Below, piece by piece: positions 5,905 to 19,557 of a DNA stretch of 20,975 nt. The stretch comes from a virus (Duplodnaviria; Heunggongvirae; Uroviricota; Caudoviricetes). The stretch spans positions 1 through 20,975 of IMG/VR virus record IMGVR_UViG_2728369187_000006; one strand, 5' to 3'. A program made the translations under genes and the position numbers. Within the stretch, counting starts at the first letter, position 1; every line of letters begins with the position of its first letter. Under the pieces are notes generated by a model that saw only the letters and a program-made list of their open reading frames with translations, was not told the DNA's origin and ran no database searches.

Positions 5905-7695
5905 ATGAGCACAGAATTAAAACTAAAGAAAATTATGGCATCGTCTAAAATTGAGCCATTTATTAGACATATTCGTTTTCCTTTTTTTAAAAACCTTGCA
6001 GAGGGTAGCAAGATTGATTTTGAGTATCCAATTACAGCATTAGTTGGTCAAAACGGAACCAATAAAAGTTCTGTTTTAAGAGCCCTATTCGGTTCTCCAA
6101 ACAACTATTCTCTGGGTAGCTTATGGTTTTCTACAGATGTAGATGAGATTAAAGATGGTGGTCGTTCTAGATTTATTTATGGATATTATGACAAAGCTAC
6201 TGATTCAATTGTTGAAGTAATTAAAACTCGAATCTCTAAAGAAAATGATCCTGATTACTGGGAACCATCCAGACCATTAAAATCCGACAACATGGCTCCA
6301 ATGCCTAGTACAAAAATCTCAACCAATCAACTAAGGACTAGGTGGAAAGCTATTGACAAAAATGTAATATATTTAGATTTCAGAGCAACTATCAGTGCAT
6401 TTGATAAGTTCTTTTATCACTCTGATTTTCATACATACCCTAAGAAAGATTATCTTAGAAAACGCAGTCAGATGCTAAAAGACATTATAGATAACGATCT
6501 TAAAAAATATCAACCTCATAAAGGAAAAAAAGACAAGCTATTTGTTAACACTTTATTAGAAAAAAGTAAGGTAGAGGCAATCAGCAAGATTTTAGGTCGC
6601 AAATACACAAGCATCCGCCTTATTGAACATAGCTTATTCACTAATGACAAAGCTCCCACAATTATTCTTCAATCAGAAAACTTAAAATATTCTGAAGCTT
6701 TCGCAGGCAGTGGGGAATTTGCTGTATCTATATTAGTGCATAAACTAATGGATAGCCCTGATGCATCTTTAATTCTGCTAGATGAACCTGAAGTATCACT
6801 TCACCCTTCTGCTCAATGTCAATTGATGGAATTTTTATCAGAACAAGCACTTAAAAAGAAACATCAAATTGTCATATCCACACATTCATCAACAATAGTA
6901 AAAGACTTGCCTAAAAATGCCATAAAATTATTCTGTCTGAATGATAAAATAGGAAAGGTTGATGTTCTTCAAAATGTCAGCCCAGAAGAATCTTTCTTTA
7001 TTCTTGGTGAACGCATTGATAAAAGAACCGTTATTGTAGAAGATCGGTTAGCGAAGAGGTTTGTAGAAAAGGCGCTTAAAGCGGGTGGTGAAGCATTATT
7101 AAACTCCTTCGAAGTAAAACATGTTCCTGGAGGAGCGGGAAGTATTCTTCAAACTTTGGCTGTGCCTTTATGTGTTGCCAATGTTAAAAACGTTATTTTC
7201 TTATTAGATGGTGACCAATCGAGAACTGATGATTATCCAACTTCTGATTCCATACCAGAAAATCAAAACACAAACCTTCAAAACATCATAAAAGAAATAA
7301 CCAATCAAGATATAAAATTTAGTTGTGATGGTTCTAATGGCTCATCAAATAACAATCAAAAATACAAAATGCAAAGAAATTTTATCGATTTCATCCACGA
7401 TAAAATTGCTTTTCTTCCTGTTTATACTCCTGAAGCATTTCTTATTGAGAATGTTCATGGTGATTATAAAGAATATAAAGATCAAATCCCCAAAAACATT
7501 CAAGATGCTAAAGAAATCACCAAAGAACTTTGTAAGTTAGACACAGGGTTGGAAAACGTTACCAGTGACGATATCTTTGAAACACAAATCAGAATTCTTA
7601 ATAAAATACCAAATAATCATGAAGTGTTAACAAAAACTCGAGAGTTGCTGCAAATCTTTTTAGATAATGATACTATCAGACCAAGAGTGAGGTAG
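5905..7695 (+). CDS. OLD-family-like ABC ATPase with putative C-terminal TOPRIM nuclease domain (cargo gene 1)
   Basis: 596 aa. Variant Walker A (ALVGQNGTNKSSVLRAL), Walker B with LHP (SLILLDEPEVSLHPSAQ) typical of AAA_21/OLD ATPases, then TOPRIM-like motifs (TVIVEDRLAKRFVE, glycine-rich PGGAGS, DxD-like FLLDGDQ). AT-rich. Family assignment is by eye, not by HMM. Start may instead be ATG 5935. Confidence 0.7.
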   Translation: MSTELKLKKIMASSKIEPFIRHIRFPFFKNLAEGSKIDFEYPITALVGQNGTNKSSVLRALFGSPNNYSLGSLWFSTDVDEIKDGGRSRFIYGYYDKATDSIVEVIKTRISKENDPDYWEPSRPLKSDNMAPMPSTKISTNQLRTRWKAIDKNVIYLDFRATISAFDKFFYHSDFHTYPKKDYLRKRSQMLKDIIDNDLKKYQPHKGKKDKLFVNTLLEKSKVEAISKILGRKYTSIRLIEHSLFTNDKAPTIILQSENLKYSEAFAGSGEFAVSILVHKLMDSPDASLILLDEPEVSLHPSAQCQLMEFLSEQALKKKHQIVISTHSSTIVKDLPKNAIKLFCLNDKIGKVDVLQNVSPEESFFILGERIDKRTVIVEDRLAKRFVEKALKAGGEALLNSFEVKHVPGGAGSILQTLAVPLCVANVKNVIFLLDGDQSRTDDYPTSDSIPENQNTNLQNIIKEITNQDIKFSCDGSNGSSNNNQKYKMQRNFIDFIHDKIAFLPVYTPEAFLIENVHGDYKEYKDQIPKNIQDAKEITKELCKLDTGLENVTSDDIFETQIRILNKIPNNHEVLTKTRELLQIFLDNDTIRPRVR

Positions 7696-7698
7696 ATA

Positions 7699-8739
7699 AT
7701 GGCTAAAAAGATACACGTTTACGATTTCTTTTCCGGCTGCGGCGGAACCAGTGTAGGCCTAAAAGCGGTGGGAATGGAAATTATTTTCGGTTTAGATATT
7801 GATCTAGACTCCGCTAACACCTTTAAAATGAATAATCCATTTGCACATTTTATCAATGGTGATATCAAAGATACACACGTTGAGGAAATTAAGCATCTGG
7901 TTTGTGCGTCAACACAAAGCAAAGCTCTAACCCTATTTTGTGGTTGTGCTCCATGTCAACCATTCTCGAAACAAAATAAAATACGGAACGAGGATGATCC
8001 GAGAAAAGATCTGCTTACTGAGTTTGCACGGTTTGTCTCTTATTATACGCCAGACTTTGTACTGGTAGAGAATGTACCAGGAATCCAAAATGTCGATATT
8101 AACAATGGAAATTTCCAGAAATTTCTTGAGGTTTTAGCACATCATCACTACAACGTTGATTTTGGTGTGATTCCTGCGTTGTGGTTCGGGGTTCCTCAAA
8201 CACGTGAACGTTTTGTTTTACTGGCGTCAAAACACACGAATATTAAGCTTCCATCACAAACTCATGATGGATTAAAAACTCCGTATGCAACTGTCAGAGA
8301 CTGGATCGGCGGATTACCTCCTATTGCTGCCGGTGAAACTCATAAAGATGTTATGGATCATACAGCAGCCAAACTATCTGATCTAAATATTAAACGTATT
8401 AAAGCGACTCCTGAAGGAAAAGGTAGAGAATCTTGGCCTGAAGAACTTATACTAAAATGCCATAAAAAATATAAAGGGCATACTGATGTTTATGGACGGC
8501 TTTCTTGGGACAAACCAGCAAGTGGATTAACAACTAGATGTATAAGCTATTCGAATGGACGTTTCGGACATCCAGAGCAAGATAGGGCTATTTCTGTTAG
8601 AGAGGCTGCGTTATTACAGACTTTCCCATTAGACTATTCCTTCACAGGCTCTTTAGTCTCGAAAGCCAAACAGATAGGGAATGCAGTCCCTCCCAAGATG
8701 GCTGAAGCTCTTGGAAGGGCTATCATCGCATCACTTTAA
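7699..8739 (+). CDS. DNA (cytosine-5)-methyltransferase (cargo gene 2)
   Basis: 346 aa with canonical m5C motifs: I (FSGCGG), IV (PCQPFS), VI (ENVPG), VIII (QTRERF), X (GNAVPP). Starts 4 nt after the upstream stop, with GAGG inside the upstream gene end, so likely translationally coupled. Confidence 0.9.
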   Translation: MAKKIHVYDFFSGCGGTSVGLKAVGMEIIFGLDIDLDSANTFKMNNPFAHFINGDIKDTHVEEIKHLVCASTQSKALTLFCGCAPCQPFSKQNKIRNEDDPRKDLLTEFARFVSYYTPDFVLVENVPGIQNVDINNGNFQKFLEVLAHHHYNVDFGVIPALWFGVPQTRERFVLLASKHTNIKLPSQTHDGLKTPYATVRDWIGGLPPIAAGETHKDVMDHTAAKLSDLNIKRIKATPEGKGRESWPEELILKCHKKYKGHTDVYGRLSWDKPASGLTTRCISYSNGRFGHPEQDRAISVREAALLQTFPLDYSFTGSLVSKAKQIGNAVPPKMAEALGRAIIASL

Positions 8740-10946: not shown

Positions 10947-11336
10947 TCAGGCGGCTGCACCCGCCGTTTTCTCGTACTTACTGATAGTGATCTCGACCTT
11001 CCCTCCCGGGATAACCGGTCCCCACTCCACCAGCATTCTTTTCACCTGACTGTCGTCTTCCCACACACCCGCGTGGGTCAGGGCGTCAAACAGCGCCTTG
11101 TTATAGTTGTCCAGATCGCGGATCCGGTTATCCGGAGGAAACAACACGATCTCCACTGAAGCAGGTGCCGACGTTGGTTTCGGCAGACGACGTAACTGCT
11201 CAACTATTGCTGCGCACGCCGCGCTCTGGAATTTTCGCCCCGCCGCGCTTATCAGACTCTTACCAGCAAACGCCCCTTTGTTGGGGTGTCGCCAGTACGT
11301 GTTCACGCTGGGCGGGAAAGGCAAGATCAGCTTCAT
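10947..11336 (-). CDS. rusA: Holliday junction resolvase RusA
   Basis: 129 aa, MKLILPFPPSVNTYWR...DLDNYNKALFDALTHAGVWEDDSQV is the RusA signature; typical nin-region gene. Confidence 0.88.
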   Translation of the reverse strand: MKLILPFPPSVNTYWRHPNKGAFAGKSLISAAGRKFQSAACAAIVEQLRRLPKPTSAPASVEIVLFPPDNRIRDLDNYNKALFDALTHAGVWEDDSQVKRMLVEWGPVIPGGKVEITISKYEKTAGAAA

Positions 11337-11659
11337 ACTTTCAGGCCTCTCTCATGTAACCAGTGGGCTGCACGCAGCCTGGCGTTTTCCTCACCGGCAA
11401 GCAGTGCGCGGATAATCCCGACCGCCTCGCTGTCGTCGTCCTTCACCGCGGTATGAAGCGTTATCCCCCGGGCCACGCCACGCTTTATCGTGATGACGCC
11501 TTTTTTCTCCAGTGCACGAAGATGCTCTACCGCTGCATTCACTGAACGGTATCCCAGCATGGTTGCCACCTCCTGATTGGTTGGCGGAAAGCCACGCTCT
11601 TTCTGGTAAGAAATCAGCATATCCAGCACCTGCTGCTGGCATTGAGTTAACGTCGTCAT
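11333..11659 (-). CDS. LexA DNA-binding-domain-like protein lacking the S24 peptidase domain
   Basis: Start taken at the internal ATG 11659..11657, which overlaps the upstream TGA as ATGA. LTQCQQQVLDMLISYQKERGFPPTNQEVATMLGYRSVNAAVEHLRALEKKGVI resembles the LexA N-terminal winged helix. Only about 108 aa, with no Ala-Gly/Ser/Lys protease module. Confidence 0.65.
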   Translation of the reverse strand: MTTLTQCQQQVLDMLISYQKERGFPPTNQEVATMLGYRSVNAAVEHLRALEKKGVITIKRGVARGITLHTAVKDDDSEAVGIIRALLAGEENARLRAAHWLHERGLKV

Positions 11660-12309
11660 GCCGCCATCTCCCTGACCAGTTTTTCCGCCTGCTGGCAAAC
11701 CTGCACCAGAAAGGCTTCACCACATGCCTCAAGTTCATCGCGCCCGATGTAGCTGATTGCCGGTCCCTTCCAGGTCTTGTCGAAAACAGCAATAGCACCA
11801 GCGAAGAAAGCGCCTGTCGGCACCTGCTTCTCATCCTTCGGGATAAACCAGGCAGGCAGTTCAAAACCAATACGCCCGCGAATAAAAGCAATATGGTCCG
11901 CATCTTCCGGCCACCACACTTCGCTGGTGGCAGCTTTGATCAGGAAAACATAGCGCCCGCCCTTATCACGCATGGCACTGGCATGTTTCATGATGTAACG
12001 CATGCCGGTGATGTATTGCCCCTCATGCTGACTGGCGCGGCTGTATGGGGGATTACCAAAGGCAGCACCTTTAAGCTCCGCAAGACGTTCTGACCAGTCA
12101 TGCGCCAGCGCGTTATCTTCCGCCGTGTAATACGCGGCACATTTGGCGTTATCACCGTCAGTAAACAGATCCAGAACAAACGGGCCAAACAGGGTGTTAA
12201 TTCCCCAGAAAATGTTGTCCGGCGTGCGCCACTGATCGCCCACTTCCTTCAGTTCATGGGCTGGTTTGTTCCGCAGTTCCACCAGCGCCTGGCAATATTT
12301 ATTACTCAT
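11656..12309 (-). CDS. Phage N6-adenine DNA methyltransferase (Dam-like)
   Basis: NPPY motif (AAFGNPPYSRA) and overall resemblance to phage Dam MTases. Start at ATG 12309..12307 overlaps the upstream stop (TAATG); the ORF-track start at 12342 is less likely. Confidence 0.8.
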   Translation of the reverse strand: MSNKYCQALVELRNKPAHELKEVGDQWRTPDNIFWGINTLFGPFVLDLFTDGDNAKCAAYYTAEDNALAHDWSERLAELKGAAFGNPPYSRASQHEGQYITGMRYIMKHASAMRDKGGRYVFLIKAATSEVWWPEDADHIAFIRGRIGFELPAWFIPKDEKQVPTGAFFAGAIAVFDKTWKGPAISYIGRDELEACGEAFLVQVCQQAEKLVREMAA

Positions 12310-12803
12310 TAAGCCCCCACGTAATTCCCTGACAGATACCACTCTTCACCCGATGCAGCGCGCTTGCTGCTTTTCCGTAAGCACCGCTCACGACGCGCCA
12401 GAAAATTGTTTCGTTCTGGCTGGGAGTGGCTTTCACGGAATGCCGCCATCCACACGGTTGCAGCACGACGGTATAAGCCCCTGGACTCCAGTTCTTCAGC
12501 CTGGCGGGTCAGGCACAAAATCACCCGGTGATCGTTAGTGCCGACATAGAAATTGCGCACAGGTCTGGTTTCACGAACTGGTTGTGGTTCCGGCTCCTGC
12601 GCTCTCTCAGTCAGGCGCGGGAAATGTCTGCGTGTATCCCCTTCACAACGGTGAGCCACACGCCCACTCTGACGTAACTTGCTTGCTGACTGCAGAACGC
12701 GCTGCCGTGAGTAACCTGCAAAAGCATCCGCAATGTCTCCGGAAGTACACCCCGGATGGGCTTCAATGAATTTCTGAACGTCATTTAACAGACTCATGAT
12801 CAC
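12309..12803 (-). CDS. Hypothetical regulator with PerC-like C-terminal motif
   Basis: 164 aa. C-terminal AEELESRGLYRRAATVWMAAF...RRERCLRK resembles PerC-family activators from memory. Occupies the slot where lambda has the helicase loader P. ATGA overlap with the upstream initiator gene. Confidence 0.5.
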   Translation of the reverse strand: MIMSLLNDVQKFIEAHPGCTSGDIADAFAGYSRQRVLQSASKLRQSGRVAHRCEGDTRRHFPRLTERAQEPEPQPVRETRPVRNFYVGTNDHRVILCLTRQAEELESRGLYRRAATVWMAAFRESHSQPERNNFLARRERCLRKSSKRAASGEEWYLSGNYVGA

Positions 12804-13741
12804 CCCCTGAATCCTGCCGGGATCTGGCTGTAGTCCACGTTGTCGTAACTGGATTTGAAGTACGGGTCTTCGCGTTTTTCGGTGTACGTGCTTACGGACG
12901 GCGATAAGCGCAGGGAAAGCTCATCCCATTTTTCCCGCAGCTTCGACGGGCTGAGCACGTTACGGCACCAGAACGGATCGCGGCTGACGCGGCTGTACAT
13001 CTCGCAGATTTGTTTGTGAGTACGACCATCCTGCACACACATCAGGCGAATTTCGTTTGCCCAGGCTGTCCAGTTCGGTTCTTTGGGACGAACCACCTCG
13101 CCGTCACATTCGGCAGCCTGCTCGTACAGGGCGATGATTTTTTTCCAGAGCCACTGTGCGCAGGTCAAATCATCCTGCGTTCCCCACTGGCGCTTTTTAG
13201 GGCTGAATACAACCGCATCAGGATGGCGAGTTAAAAAATCCTGTTCAGCCGTCTGCGTGTCCGGTTGCGAAGCGTCCGGACGAGAAGGTTTTTTATCTGA
13301 CGGATCATGTTTTGATTTTACTGACGGATCCCCGCCAGATTCTGACGGGTGAAAACCCGCTTTTTTGCCAGATTTCGACGCATCAAATTTTGACGGGTCA
13401 GATTTTGATGCGTCAGATTTTGACGGGTCAGAATCTGACAGTTGAGAAAATGCCGCTGCCTGAAGCTTCACAACGTTAAGCTGATAAACATTCGACGCAT
13501 TGCGGTTACCCTGGCGACGCGCCTTACGCGTTAACCAGCCTTCTGCTTCCAGCCGTGCGATAGCCGTTCTGACGGTACTCATCCCCGCGCCAATCTGACG
13601 GGCAATGGTTTCAATTGATGGCCAGCACACACCTTCGTCATTACTGAAATCAGCCAGGCGGGCCATAATTGCCACGCTGGATAATTTCATGCCTGACGCT
13701 GCGCAACCATCCCATACATAGCCGGTTAATTTAGTGCTCAT
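12800..13741 (-). CDS. Replication initiator protein (O-like; N-terminal HTH, internal iteron-encoded linker)
   Basis: 313 aa. N-terminal winged-helix-like segment (VAIMARLADFSNDEGVCWPSIETIARQIGAGMSTVRTAIARLEAEGWL). Central repetitive linker (DPSKSDASKSDPSKFDASKS) is encoded by the iteron repeats, as in lambda O. Confidence 0.75.
   Translation of the reverse strand: MSTKLTGYVWDGCAASGMKLSSVAIMARLADFSNDEGVCWPSIETIARQIGAGMSTVRTAIARLEAEGWLTRKARRQGNRNASNVYQLNVVKLQAAAFSQLSDSDPSKSDASKSDPSKFDASKSGKKAGFHPSESGGDPSVKSKHDPSDKKPSRPDASQPDTQTAEQDFLTRHPDAVVFSPKKRQWGTQDDLTCAQWLWKKIIALYEQAAECDGEVVRPKEPNWTAWANEIRLMCVQDGRTHKQICEMYSRVSRDPFWCRNVLSPSKLREKWDELSLRLSPSVSTYTEKREDPYFKSSYDNVDYSQIPAGFRG
13290..13440. repeat. 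Iteron-like direct repeats (candidate phage origin) inside the initiator gene
   Basis: About eight copies of a (T/A)YTGACGG-like unit at 14-24 bp spacing (for example tctgacgg at 13296, 13341; tttgacgg at 13389, 13419), read directly. Confidence 0.65.
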
Positions 13742-13750
13742 GACCGACCT

Positions 13751-14089
13751 CTATTTCCCTGAATTTACGACGAAACTGTTCGAGCGGACTGAAGCACTCA
13801 TGCTCATAGCCTTCGCGGAGGTAGATAACCCGTTGTGTTTCCGGTTCCCAACGAATGACTCTGACGGGCACTCCGTAGTGATCTTTGAACCAGCGGTTAA
13901 CTTGTCGCAAAGGACTGTCTCCTTCTGCCGGTTGAAATCACCCACAGCCCACTCTGCAAAGCTGTGGGTTACAATTTCCCTGTCACCTGGTACATTTACT
14001 GCATAGCAATACTCCACCTTCGCTTTTCCACCCGGTACAGGAAGCGCAATCAGTTGCGAGCGACGGTAGTGTGTTGTTAAACTGTTCAT
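13751..14089 (-). CDS. Hypothetical protein, apparently frame-disrupted, or two small overlapping genes
   Basis: The 112-aa ORF is protein-like for its first ~55 aa, then turns Ser-rich and low-complexity. Another frame over 13746..13931 reads as a convincing protein ([59 protein letters not shown]), with AAGGAG 8 nt before an in-frame TTG. An 8-bp hairpin (13941..13968) sits at the junction. Confidence 0.35.
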
Positions 14090-14649
14090 GCGTTAGTTTC
14101 TCCACAGTCACGACACGCCACGGCGCCCGGAGCTGCACACTCGCGGGCGTCATTACTTTCTGAAATGCAAAAGATTTTGTAGACCAGTGCTGCATGCTCC
14201 TGCAGCTTCGAAATTGAGAGATATAGCTCGTCGTTAATTGCTGTTTTCTCATGCGGTTCCACTACACCGTCTTCGATTGCTGAACGAATCTGTTTTGAAT
14301 AACTGCCGATCTGTTCAATGACTTCCAGCAGACGCTGGTTAATATCGGCGTTGTCCACATCCTCGACGTCAGGAAGAGACACAAATACGCCATTTGCAGA
14401 CTGCGCCACAGCATCAGCAATGAAGTGAGTGCCACCAGCACGCTGTAAAACCATTGCCCATCCCAGCGGAAAAATCTGATCGCCATCTGCACGAAGGCGG
14501 TTGAATAAAGCGTTCTCTGTTACATCCAGCCAGTCAGCCGCTTCAGCGTAACCACCCGGCAACGCCGCGATAGTTTTTCTGACAGCTTTCACGTACCACT
14601 CAGGCTGTTTTTCTATTTTCCAGTGATGCTTACCCACGATTAGCCTCAT
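14086..14649 (-). CDS. CII-like / YdaT-like phage regulatory protein
   Basis: 187-aa ORF directly downstream of the cro-like gene, as in cI-cro-cII and racR-ydaS-ydaT arrangements. Family assignment is from memory and position only. Confidence 0.6.
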
Positions 14650-14680
14650 CGTTCTGTGGTTAAAAATTGAAAGTGTTCTG

Positions 14681-14881
14681 CTAATCTTTCGGATAGATAT
14701 CCGGTCTTAAGTCAGATTTCGTAATTGCACCTGACGTGCATTGCTCAAGTTTTTTAGCCAGCACAAAACTGGCTTTTTTATAGCCATTGAAAACCAGCCG
14801 TAAGTAGCCAGGTGTTGAGCCAACTTTTCCGGCCAACTCGCCCTGCTGTTCTTTGGTTAAAGAGTCCCAATACGCTTTCAT
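14681..14881 (-). CDS. cro: Cro-like HTH repressor
   Basis: Small HTH protein (QGELAGKVGSTPGYLRLVFNGYKKAS) divergent from cI. Start at ATG 14881 is preferred because GGAGG lies 8 nt upstream; the ORF-track start at 14905 lacks an RBS. Confidence 0.75.
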   Translation of the reverse strand: MKAYWDSLTKEQQGELAGKVGSTPGYLRLVFNGYKKASFVLAKKLEQCTSGAITKSDLRPDIYPKD

Positions 14882-14971
14882 ACAATATGTACCTCCGGTG
14901 TACATATTACATGATTAAAATGAACCTTCAAGATACTTGTACCTTAACGGTACAAGGGTTTTAATTTCGTT
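14882..14971. promoter_or_regulatory. Immunity control region (OR-like): two palindromic operators plus divergent pR-like and pRM-like promoters
   Basis: Palindromes ATGTACCTCCGGTGTACAT (14887..14905) and CTTGTACCTTAACGGTACAAG (14936..14956). Minus-strand TTGAAG-N16-TAATAT upstream of cro; plus-strand TTGTAC-N17-TTAATT ending 5 nt before the cI ATG (near-leaderless). Confidence 0.65.
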
Positions 14972-15646
14972 ATGAAAACAATCCATGACATCCGGCGGTC
15001 TAACGCCAGAAAACTGAGAGATGGTGTTGGCGGGAATTCTTCCTTTGCCACTATGATTGATCGCGAGCCAACCCAGACCAGCAGGTTTATGGGAGATGGT
15101 GCTACTAAAAATATCGGTGACAGCATGGCACGACACATCGAAAAATGTTTCGACCTGCCTGTCGGATGGCTCGATCAAGAACACCAGACAACCAACATCA
15201 CAAAAAAACCTGATGTTTCAATCACTAATAAACAAATCACATTAGTCCCTGTCATATCATGGGTACAGGCCGGAGCATGGAAAGAAGTTGGATATTCTGA
15301 GGTTGATTTGAGCACAGCAGAAACGTATCCCTGCCCTGTACCCTGTGGGGAAATGACTTATATCTTGCGGGTGATAGGTGATTCAATGATTGATGAGTAC
15401 CGCCCGGGAGACATGATTTTTGTCGATCCTGAAGTACCTGCCTGCCACGGTGACGACGTTATTGCATTGATGCACGATACAGGTGAAACCACCTTCAAAA
15501 GGTTGATAGAAGATGGGACACAGCGTTATCTCAAAGCGTTAAACCCAAACTGGCCTGAGCCTTACATTAAGATCAACGGTAATTGCTCTATAATTGGAAC
15601 TGTGATTTTCTCAGGAAAACCAAGAAGATACAAAATCAAAGCCTAA
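14972..15646 (+). CDS. cI: cI-like repressor (N-terminal DNA-binding domain plus C-terminal S24 LexA-like autopeptidase)
   Basis: 224 aa. C-terminal S24 features: Ala-Gly cleavage-site candidate (WVQAGAWK), Ser nucleophile context (VIGDSM), downstream Lys. Divergent from the cro-like gene across the operator region. Confidence 0.85.
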   Translation: MKTIHDIRRSNARKLRDGVGGNSSFATMIDREPTQTSRFMGDGATKNIGDSMARHIEKCFDLPVGWLDQEHQTTNITKKPDVSITNKQITLVPVISWVQAGAWKEVGYSEVDLSTAETYPCPVPCGEMTYILRVIGDSMIDEYRPGDMIFVDPEVPACHGDDVIALMHDTGETTFKRLIEDGTQRYLKALNPNWPEPYIKINGNCSIIGTVIFSGKPRRYKIKA

Positions 15647-15720: not shown

Positions 15721-15817
15721 AGAGAAACAACAAACAGGCAGGACGCCCACGAAGTAGCCGCCGGTGGCGTATGAATGACCGGATGATTCGTTAAATACTA
15801 TGTGTAAGAGAGCGCAA

Positions 15818-16021
15818 ATGAACCGTTATTTCACATGCTCGTTTTGTGGCGCAAACGAGCTGCAGGCAAAAAAAATCATCGCCAAAGGCGGAAAAGATGA
15901 AGTTGCTATCTGCTCTGAGTGCGTAGTCTTGTGTGTCGGGGCATTAATCAATATCAGCACAACTATTCAGTTCACACCAAATGAGAATGCGCCTTTAGAT
16001 GCGCGGAAATCTGGAGGTTAA
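15818..16021 (+). CDS. Small protein with ClpX-type C4 zinc-binding-domain-like motif
   Basis: MNRYFTCSFCGANELQAKKIIAKGGKDEVAICSECVVLCVGAL aligns by eye with the E. coli ClpX N-terminal ZBD ([31 protein letters not shown]), including all four Cys. AAGAGAG RBS upstream of ATG 15818. First gene downstream of the pL-like promoter. Confidence 0.65.
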   Translation: MNRYFTCSFCGANELQAKKIIAKGGKDEVAICSECVVLCVGALINISTTIQFTPNENAPLDARKSGG

Positions 16022-18176: not shown

Positions 18177-18274
18177 TGGAGCCATACAGCCTCACACTCG
18201 ATGAGGCCTGTTCATTGCTCAATGATATCCAGACCTACCATCGCCGCATCAATGCGGCTTTTTCTTGCGTGTAA
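18176..18274 (+). CDS. Very small hypothetical ORF (32 aa)
   Basis: AGAGGTG RBS 6 nt upstream; ATG overlaps the upstream stop (TAATG). Too short for a confident call. Confidence 0.3.
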   Translation: MEPYSLTLDEACSLLNDIQTYHRRINAAFSCV

Positions 18275-18290
18275 TTGCGGAGACTTTGCG

Positions 18291-18509
18291 ATGTACTTGA
18301 CACTTCAGGAGTGGAACGCTCGCCAGCGACGCCCAAGAAGCCTTGAAACAGTTCGTCGATGGGTGCGCGAATGCAGGATATTCCCTCCTCCGGTTAAGGA
18401 TGGAAGAGAGTATCTGTTCCACGAATCAGCGGTAAAGGTTGACTTAAATCGACCAGTAACAGGTAGCCTTTTGAAGAGGATCAGAAATGGGAAGAAGGCG
18501 AAGTCATGA
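18291..18509 (+). CDS. xis: Excisionase Xis (lambda-type)
   Basis: 72 aa from the internal ATG 18291 (MYLTLQEWNARQRRPRSLETVRRWVRECRIFPPPVKDGREYLFHESAVKVDLNRPVTGSLLKRIRNGKKAKS), matching lambda Xis from memory. Overlaps the int start as in lambda. Confidence 0.92.
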   Translation: MYLTLQEWNARQRRPRSLETVRRWVRECRIFPPPVKDGREYLFHESAVKVDLNRPVTGSLLKRIRNGKKAKS

Positions 18510-19557
18510 GCGCCGGGATTTACCCCCTAACCTTTATATAAGAAACAATGGATATTACTGCTACAGGGACCCAAGGACGGGTAAAGAGTTCGGATTAGGC
18601 AGAGACAGGAGGATAGCAATTACTGAAGCAATACAGGCAAACATTGAGTTATTTTCAGGACACAAACACAAGCCTCTGACAGCGAGAATCAACAGTGATA
18701 ATTCTGTTACGTTACATTCATGGCTTGATCGCTACGAAAAAATCCTCGCCAGCAGAGGAATCAAGCAGAAGACACTTATAAATTACATGAGCAAAATTAA
18801 AGCAATAAGGAGGGGGCTACCTGATGTTCCACTTGAAGACATCACCACAAAAGAAATTGCAGCAATGCTCAATGGATACATAGACGAGGGCAAGGCGGCG
18901 TCAGCCAAGTTAATCAGATCAACACTGAGCGATGCATTCCGAGAGGCAATAGCTGAAGGCCATATAACAACAAACCCGGTCGCTGCCACTCGCGCAGCAA
19001 AATCAGAGGTAAGGAGATCAAGACTTACGGCTGACGAATACCTGAAAATTTATCAAGCAGCAGAATCATCACCATGTTGGCTTAGACTTGCAATGGAACT
19101 GGCTGTTGTTACCGGGCAGCGAGTTGGTGATTTATGCGAAATGAAGTGGTCTGATATCGTAGATGGATATCTTTATGTCGAGCAAAGCAAAACAGGCGTA
19201 AAAATTGCCATCCCAACAGCATTGCATGTTGATGCTCTCGGAATATCAATGAAGGAAACACTTGATAAATGCAAAGAGATTCTTGGCGGAGAAACCATAA
19301 TTGCATCTACTCGTCGCGAACCGCTTTCATCCGGCACAGTATCAAGGTATTTTATGCGCGCACGAAAAGCATCAGGTCTTTCCTTCGAAGGGGATCCGCC
19401 TACCTTTCACGAGTTGCGCAGTTTGTCTGCAAGACTCTATGAGAAGCAGATAAGCGATAAGTTTGCTCAACATCTTCTCGGGCATAAGTCGGACACCATG
19501 GCATCACAGTATCGTGATGACAGAGGCAGGGAGTGGGACAAAATTGAAATCAAATAA
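18487..19557 (+). CDS. int: Site-specific tyrosine integrase Int (lambda-type)
   Basis: 356 aa, essentially lambda Int from memory (MGRRRSHERRDLPPNLYIRNNGYYCYRDPRTGKEFGLGRDRRIAITEAIQANIELF...), followed directly by the att site. Confidence 0.95.
   Translation: MGRRRSHERRDLPPNLYIRNNGYYCYRDPRTGKEFGLGRDRRIAITEAIQANIELFSGHKHKPLTARINSDNSVTLHSWLDRYEKILASRGIKQKTLINYMSKIKAIRRGLPDVPLEDITTKEIAAMLNGYIDEGKAASAKLIRSTLSDAFREAIAEGHITTNPVAATRAAKSEVRRSRLTADEYLKIYQAAESSPCWLRLAMELAVVTGQRVGDLCEMKWSDIVDGYLYVEQSKTGVKIAIPTALHVDALGISMKETLDKCKEILGGETIIASTRREPLSSGTVSRYFMRARKASGLSFEGDPPTFHELRSLSARLYEKQISDKFAQHLLGHKSDTMASQYRDDRGREWDKIEIK

Follow-up and report, generated by a model that had tools for sequence, protein, structure and literature searches.

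A DnaT-like peptide at the end of an O-type initiator suggests how a loader-less lambdoid replication module might reach host DnaB-DnaC

In phage lambda the replication origin lies inside the gene for the initiator O, the next gene is P, and the C-terminal domain of O is the part that binds P. For their replication, iteron plasmids use one Rep protein together with the host proteins DnaA, DnaB, and DnaC; a single winged-helix initiator (pSC101 RepA, R6K pi, F RepE) binds the iterons and relies on host DnaB and DnaC, the origins usually carry DnaA boxes, and the iterons lie outside the rep gene. A further arrangement is the O-only module, recorded in 34 of 314 lambdoid phages, whose replication is described as "not yet understood" (Genome Res 2025, PMC12315714); the main text of that study, in which phage LLS is compared with mEp460_4F5, records the arrangement and does not mention DnaT. 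This article concerns a module of this kind in a 20,975-nucleotide (nt) stretch of tailed-phage DNA, positions 1 to 20,975 of IMG/VR virus record IMGVR_UViG_2728369187_000006 and hereafter the window, in which an initiator gene with a putative origin inside it is followed by a gene for a 164-amino-acid (aa) PerC-like protein. The initiator ends in a peptide that closely resembles the C terminus of Escherichia coli DnaT, and we consider it probable, with moderate confidence drawn from comparison of related loci, that this tail recruits host DnaC-DnaB at a one-protein, lambda-type module.

The module consists of a replication origin and an initiator gene from a very common E. coli and Shigella prophage that has no helicase loader of its own. 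Isolated E. coli phages, as well as Shigella phages SfIV and SfII, match its 1.4-kb replication stretch at 98-99% identity (the initiator gene DNA is about 98% identical to that of SfII and SfIV), and 1,914 complete E. coli genomes out of 5,426 contain at least 80% of the stretch. A defective prophage that has lost P was considered and ruled out, given that the same module is present in the complete genomes of isolated phages; the complete SfIV genome, with 54 genes, shares the module and has no loader.

The initiator gene encodes 313 aa on the minus strand (12800-13741 in the open reading frame, or ORF, list) and belongs to the lambda O/phi80 gp15 family. It matches phrog_391, "replication initiation O-like", in PHROGs (E 1.6e-135), has 2,377 homologues, and is 31% identical to lambda O over 216 aa (BLASTP E 2e-26). 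Public records label it "replication protein O", "primosomal protein", or, in RefSeq, "helix-turn-helix domain-containing protein". The only domain that Pfam reports is HTH_36 (42.9 bits, cut-off 25), a winged helix-turn-helix at about aa 1-95 (13457..13741, minus strand) with weaker GntR, DnaD_N, and RP-C matches, the last at 17 bits and below its cut-off; Phage_rep_O (PF04492) is absent from this part of the protein in the Pfam scan. We infer that the N-terminal domain binds the iterons. A second, helical domain occupies aa 165-279 (12905..13249, minus strand), and in the AlphaFold2 model of aa 165-313 it is confidently predicted to residue 279 and followed by a low-confidence tail. Residues of about 172-277 align with the C-terminal domain of lambda O (E 2e-26) and hold invariant motifs in common with it, so that, judged by this alignment, the domain is a true lambda O C-domain, an assignment that is new here; its fold is also weakly similar to G39P and DnaD domains. 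No Pfam match to Rep_3 or to the three-helix single-stranded DNA (ssDNA)-binding domain of DnaT (PF17948) was found in the initiator, from which the DnaT N-domain is likewise absent.

Pfam scans covered the window ORFs of at least 100 aa that are not nested in other frames, together with several shorter ones, from int to the terminase genes, and the whole window was searched by tblastn with loader and helicase seeds. Between int and terminase these searches returned no lambda P, DnaC/IstB, or DnaB-like gene, and specifically no Phage_lambda_P downstream of the initiator, either in Pfam or in tblastn with three P seeds. As judged by homology, then, the prophage is shown to be without a helicase, primase, or loader gene. 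An earlier note on this DNA, made from the letters and their ORFs, had placed the initiator and the 164-aa gene at the positions given here and had recognized neither a helicase nor a loader, and on both counts the searches agree with it.

The initiator closes with a predicted disordered tail, aa 280-313 (12803..12904, minus strand; AlphaFold2 pLDDT 48-67), that ends ...REDPYFKSSYDNVDYSQIPAGFRG. Its last nine residues, SQIPAGFRG, are identical at eight of nine positions to the end of E. coli DnaT, SQIPPGFRG (the DnaT sequence used is identical to PDB chain 9zbt_D), and related initiators of the P0103 type end in QRCVNHISEPDTEIPPGFRG, in which 14 of 20 residues are those of DnaT (E 1e-7). Within DnaT itself the motif RD.N..SEPD..IPxGFRG is almost invariant among orthologues: the residues I, P, G, F, R, and G are the same in all orthologues of 72-99% identity, and the C-terminal IPxGFRG is invariant or nearly so in 22. 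When the initiator family was compared with the DnaT orthologues profile against profile (hhalign), only the last 17 columns, those of the tail, aligned (E 0.002). The phage initiator is thus not a DnaT homologue and carries DnaT's terminal peptide, and the label "primosomal protein", which rests on the tail only, is therefore not a family assignment. The point where DNA common to the window and Stx2c phages begins, about residue 289, coincides almost exactly with the tail.

The same kind of tail is found on at least five initiator architectures. The first is that of the window, HTH_36 with the O C-domain; the second, in mEp460_4F5, joins another N-domain to the O C-domain; the third is the type of SfV, Stx2c, 75/02-Stx, and Tritos; the fourth combines Phage_rep_O with a YdaU-type C-domain, as in Gifsy-2 O, the C-domain being shared by Rac YdaU; and the fifth, in Salmonella phage SPN1S, has the DNA-binding domain of DnaT (PF17948, E 3.9e-18) together with the tail. 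The SPN1S replication initiation protein (locus L297, 1748-2563) has no adjoining loader gene, and it seems to have taken over host DnaT's entire C-terminal half.

The type of tail proves to go with the type of loader. From IMG/VR, 120 loci were picked by the motif of the O C-domain, their tails were classified, and the loci were searched with the loader and helicase seeds; the counts use those with at least 900 nt downstream (92 loci, 51 with GFR-type and 41 with lambda-type or WN-type tails). Three classes of tail occur among the homologues: DnaT-like (…P.GFR.), lambda-like (…TDWIYG…), and …WNxxEAWxxxL. Lambda P is the next gene at all 41 loci with lambda-type or WN-type tails, none of which has a DnaC-like gene or lacks a loader, and at none of the 51 loci with GFR-type tails, where a DnaC-like gene follows in 13 and no loader in 38. 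In the loader-less GFR-type loci the next gene is PerC-like, DUF977, a D12 methyltransferase, or ParB-like. Near-identical loci (80 copies from a family-alignment scan, and a scan for DnaC-like genes) were left out of the independent evidence. Individual look-ups follow the same pattern: lambda-like and WN-type tails are each followed by Phage_lambda_P, the SEPDTEIPPGFRG tail by a DnaC/IstB-like gene, a Klebsiella LPENSGFRT tail by a methyltransferase and no loader, and a Pantoea ATPEGFRGY tail by a ParB-like gene and no loader. Among named phages and prophages with DnaT-like tails, a DnaC-like gene comes next in Stx phage 75/02 (gp15), Gifsy-2 (O), and Rac (YdaU), and the downstream gene is not a loader in SPN1S, Tritos, and Stx2c. 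Other tails are paired with a DnaB_C helicase, a DUF6475 gene, or an IstB-like gene. In the literature searched, a limited set, neither the DnaT-like tail nor a relation between it and the type of loader is mentioned.

Two further observations on these loci may be recorded. Initiators with the SEPDTEIPPGFRG tail (L088, 4001-6932; L219, L201, L299, and others) occur in two contexts, one in which DnaC-like, DUF1627, and DUF977 genes follow and one in which DUF977 is the immediate next gene, as though a deletion had removed the DnaC-like and DUF1627 genes. In L177, L203, L205, and L284, a DUF6475 protein of about 220 aa, which may be another loader type, comes after initiators that have the O C-domain and other tails (...GVTYEHH and similar).

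The mechanism we favour can be set out as follows. Initiator dimers would bind the repeats through the N-terminal domain and distort or open the adjoining A+T-rich DNA; the DnaT-like tail, standing in place of the lambda-type tail that is linked to P, would then dock the host helicase-loading machinery, its most likely partner being DnaC in the DnaB6-DnaC6 complex, and host DnaB would be loaded without a phage loader. The YfdN-like PerC gene would encode a DNA-binding regulator of the same mosaic block, outside helicase loading. DnaC is proposed as the partner because the tail pairs with phage DnaC homologues and because dnaT and dnaC form an operon and interact genetically (cited in PMC13377028). 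The literature examined assigns no partner to the DnaT tail (PMC13377028; PMC4132743), and a 2026 review has nothing further to say about that tail; the way in which the preprimosome brings in DnaB/DnaC is still not known according to Ducos et al. (PMC13377028). In its wider form, that the IPxGFRG tail of host DnaT and of many enterobacterial phage initiators is a DnaC-DnaB recruiting element and that loader-less lambdoid phages present a DnaT mimic at the origin, the proposal is offered tentatively, as a possibility that we would not yet call probable. The earlier note had left two alternatives, that the initiator recruits host DnaB-DnaC directly or that the PerC-like protein is an overlooked loader or regulator. 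Comparative evidence now favours host recruitment, on the grounds of the C-terminal motif of DnaT and of a tail that occurs with a DnaC-type loader or with none and never with lambda P, and it gives the idea of a PerC-like loader no support.

Several observations weigh against this mechanism. The tail of the window initiator (VDYSQIPAGFRG) resembles that of DnaT less than the SEPDTEIPPGFRG type does, and initiators with other tails, for example ...PDGAFDDDD, also precede DnaC-like loaders in some cases. Many of the loci counted are close kin, so that the independent count comes to about seven GFR-type and about eight lambda-type or WN-type tail variants, without exception among them, and tail and loader could go together because they are physically linked in mosaic phage genomes and not for a functional reason. 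The A+T-rich stretch beside the repeats is modest, at 70%. From the side of DnaT, residues 154-179 are credited only with a contribution to cooperative ssDNA binding (Liu et al., PMC4132743), and the phage initiator lacks the DnaT N-domain, which is the part that Ducos et al. favour as the recruiter of DnaB/DnaC (PMC13377028).

A motif that comes from a preprimosome protein might instead recruit the restart primosome, PriA and/or PriB, making the initiator a site-specific DnaT and loading DnaB through the PriA pathway. SPN1S lends this some weight, as its initiator, which has no loader, possesses the whole DNA-binding domain of DnaT (the PriA-docking part in 9ZBT/9ZBU) as well as the tail. The window protein has the tail only and no PriA-docking domain, however, the PriA and PriB interfaces described in PMC13377028 exclude the DnaT tail, and the repeated pairing of the tail with phage DnaC homologues points to DnaC; we regard recruitment through PriA or PriB as unlikely, though it is the most serious competitor.

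Slightly less likely again is that the tail has no part in helicase recruitment and aids ssDNA binding or oligomerization, while the folded domains contact DnaB (or DnaA) and host DnaC does the loading. The iteron plasmids, with one Rep protein and the host's DnaA, DnaB, and DnaC, are a precedent for such an economy, the weak fold similarity of the O C-domain to G39P and DnaD domains would suit it, and DnaT residues 154-179 do raise the cooperativity of ssDNA binding (PMC4132743). Such an account leaves unexplained both the retention of the tail on five unrelated initiator architectures and its strict exclusion from P-linked initiators. Nor does the origin or its surroundings contain a DnaA box: TTWTNCACA matches the window at two places only, 9328 and 20471.

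On the reading preferred here, in which the tail recruits DnaC-DnaB, the gene that follows the initiator has no part in helicase loading. This YfdN-like PerC-family gene (164 aa, 12309-12803, minus strand) occupies the position of lambda P, and its start overlaps the initiator stop codon by 4 nt. RefSeq names it yfdN, a PerC family transcriptional regulator, and PHROGs places its product in phrog_1324, "transcriptional activator". The C-terminal PerC-like motif that the earlier note had read in it is borne out by Pfam (PF06069, residues 100-151; 36.1 bits against a curated cut-off of 22.6). AlphaFold2 predicts a winged helix-turn-helix at aa 1-62, a disordered linker, and a three-helix PerC domain at aa 92-150, with no ATPase, and Foldseek matches this model only to regulators of the ArsR/MarR/BlaI type. 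Searches of Pfam, NCBIfam, PHROGs, and PDB profiles gave no match to a loader family (lambda P, DnaC/IstB, G39P, DciA), in keeping with the earlier remark that the protein is not DnaC-like, P-like, or DnaB-like, and the profile search gave no sequence relative in the PDB. Identity with lambda Ren was tried and rejected, since no alignment was obtained despite a faint PHROG match to Ren. The family comprises 202 clusters and is confined to enterobacteria.

That this protein is nonetheless the missing loader or an adaptor is very improbable. Besides its place in the gene order, the idea has in its favour that every annotated match listed in the phage collection adjoins or overlaps a replication-protein gene, those checked having a GFRG tail, a neighbourhood that fits a shared mosaic block. 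It is opposed by the winged-helix and PerC fold, without an ATPase and without similarity to P, DnaC, G39P, or DciA; by the absence of the gene from related modules without a loader, those of Klebsiella, Pantoea, SPN1S, and Tritos; by its truncation in phage cdtI and its interruption by an insertion sequence (IS) element in Stx2a_WGPS2; and by the small size of the family, which has 202 clusters against 2,377 for the initiator. From the predicted structure the protein looks like a winged-helix regulator and not a loader or a replication protein, and a regulatory role is plausible.

The putative origin lies in the linker region of the initiator gene. At 13369-13432 Tandem Repeats Finder detects 4.3 copies of a 15-nt unit, CAGATTTTGACGGGT, and a repeat search places further copies at 13298, 13321, and 13343; applied to lambda O as a positive control, the same method found its four annotated iterons. 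Read by eye, the region holds a tandem array of five 15-bp iteron units (13376..13445, with cores at 13376, 13391, 13406, 13421, and, weakly, 13436) and three spaced iteron-like cores (13298..13352), TGACGGATCA at 13298, TGACGGATCC at 13322, and TGACGGGTGA at 13343. Five cores are exactly TGACGG (13298, 13322, 13343, 13391, and 13421) and two are degenerate (CGACGCATCA at 13376 and TGATGCGTCA at 13406), which with the weak one at 13436 gives seven good copies and one weak, where the earlier note had counted about eight. With one mismatch allowed, TGACGGRTSA has 12 matches in the 21-kb window, a number reached in none of 100 shuffles, and 6 of the 12 fall within 13298-13430. The cores are near-palindromic, of the form TGAC-NN-GTCA (TGAC-GG-GTCA; TGACGG(G/A)TCA), as are lambda iterons. 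On the coding strand the unit reads TCT GAC CCG TCA AAA and encodes S-D-P-S-K, so that the DNA repeats double as a DPSKS/DASKS linker peptide, as had been proposed. The most A+T-rich 40-mer of the gene (13285..13324, 70% A+T), a candidate unwinding region, lies immediately downstream of the tandem array, as read on the coding strand, and that of lambda O (80%) also comes after iteron 4. There is no enrichment of GATC sites. The earlier description of a lambda-like initiator with the origin inside its gene thus fits the layout of the repeats, the A+T-rich stretch, and the homology of the O C-domain.

Homologues from Klebsiella, Pantoea, and Salmonella each have a repeat array of their own at the same place in the gene, which supports, by comparison, an origin function for the repeats. 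In mEp460_4F5 the C-terminal half of the initiator is identical to that of the window protein, the N-domain is unrelated, and the repeats are unrelated and 23 nt long. The gain or loss of 15-nt (5-aa) units makes near-identical initiators vary in length between 274 and 329 aa (relatives P0007, P0009, P0016, P0018, and P0019); some near-identical relatives have lost the whole tandem array and retain the three spaced copies, which (as peptides HPSE, GDPSV, and HDPSD) are kept in all 10 close relatives compared. That the repeats are nothing but a low-complexity Ser/Asp/Pro/Lys linker and the origin lies elsewhere is barely credible: they do encode a plausible flexible linker whose unit number varies freely in close relatives, yet their cores are near-palindromic in the manner of lambda iterons, every relative has an array in this position, of differing sequence and changing along with the N-domain, and after the array, as in lambda, comes an A+T-rich stretch.

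Taken as a whole, the window comes from a lambdoid prophage and spans the greater part of its early and late-regulatory region. The plus strand carries cI (14972-15646), the early-left genes and then xis in the right part of the window, and a lambda-type int (18201-19557), after which a host gene follows; a 73-aa protein encoded just downstream of cI (15800-16021, plus strand) has a ClpX-type C4 zinc finger (PF06689, 1.4e-10). Minus-strand transcription order begins with a cro-like gene (14681-14905), followed by a YmfL/CII-like gene (14086-14649) and, between it and the initiator, by two small ORFs. One of these, a 112-aa ORF at 13751-14089 on the minus strand, matches phrog_1170 at 6e-70 and is called in the SfIV record; the other, a 59-aa DUF4222 ORF at 13731-13910 on the minus strand, has a TTG start and a Pfam match of 8.6e-19 and is called by RefSeq. 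The two overlap in different frames, and both have family support. After the 164-aa gene the minus strand continues with genes for a Dam methyltransferase, a protein with a LexA DNA-binding domain, RusA, KilA-N, DUF968, and Q, and beyond Q with lysis genes, HNH, TerS, and TerL. The LexA-type protein (121 aa, 11333-11698, minus strand) lies in the nin-like region and has the DNA-binding domain but lacks a peptidase domain. A two-gene cassette on the opposite strand (5905-8739, plus strand) separates Q from the holin gene; it encodes a 596-aa OLD-like ABC/AAA ATPase (PADLOC HEC-04 1.9e-36; ATPase-Toprim_I-B 1e-24) and a 346-aa C5 cytosine methyltransferase (MTase_II 7e-91), and it resembles a defence or moron cassette. 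A promoter scan of 11500-15100 found no promoter.

The module is an ordinary and widespread element of a recognized but unexplained type, to which a specific mechanistic lead can now be attached. O-only modules have been recorded before, and the sequence itself is a common one; what is new here is the link between the DnaT-like tail and the type of loader. With about one third of complete E. coli genomes carrying the module and about one tenth of lambdoid phages being O-only, a shared tail and a strict sorting by loader bring one short, mutable peptide to bear both on O-only replication and on the handover from DnaT. If the proposal is true, the IPxGFRG motif would be the missing link in the handover from the PriA-PriB-DnaT preprimosome to DnaB-DnaC. 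Two annotations are also corrected: "Primosomal protein I" as a name for the initiator rests on its tail only, and the PerC-like neighbour is, as far as its predicted fold indicates, not a replication protein.

Compared with the systems that have been described, the module stands closest to the ori/O/P region of lambda. In both, iterons lie inside the linker part of the initiator gene and are followed by its most A+T-rich stretch, the C-domains are homologous, and the genes hold the same position after cII. The window initiator differs in having an HTH_36 N-domain where lambda has Phage_rep_O, seven or eight repeats of 10-15 bp where lambda has four iterons of 19 bp, and a DnaT-like tail where lambda O ends ...TDWIYGVDL, and it has no P gene beside it. 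The O-only modules, such as that of phage LLS (PMC12315714), share with it a single O homologue and the lack of a helicase or loader, so that the window falls within their definition, and the mEp460_4F5 initiator has the same C-domain and tail. E. coli DnaT has the same motif at the extreme C terminus of a flexible tail, whereas the window protein is without the N-domain and the DNA-binding domain of DnaT. The modules of Rac (YdaU-YdaV), Gifsy-2 (whose O has a Phage_rep_O domain), and Stx 75/02 have initiators with the same DnaT-like tail (...PD..IP.GFRG), and some relatives with a DnaC-like gene (the P0103 type) also share the N-domain and the O C-domain of the window; but Rac, Gifsy-2, and Stx 75/02 have their own DnaC homologue directly downstream, and the window prophage has none. 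Unlike the origins served by iteron-plasmid Reps, that of the window has no DnaA box near it and its iterons lie inside the gene, and the initiator has no Rep_3 match. The neighbouring 164-aa protein, finally, resembles the PerC/Pch regulators of enteropathogenic and enterohaemorrhagic E. coli (EPEC and EHEC; PF06069), in that its C-terminal 50 residues match the PerC model, and differs from them in having an extra N-terminal winged-helix domain and in being about 60 residues longer.

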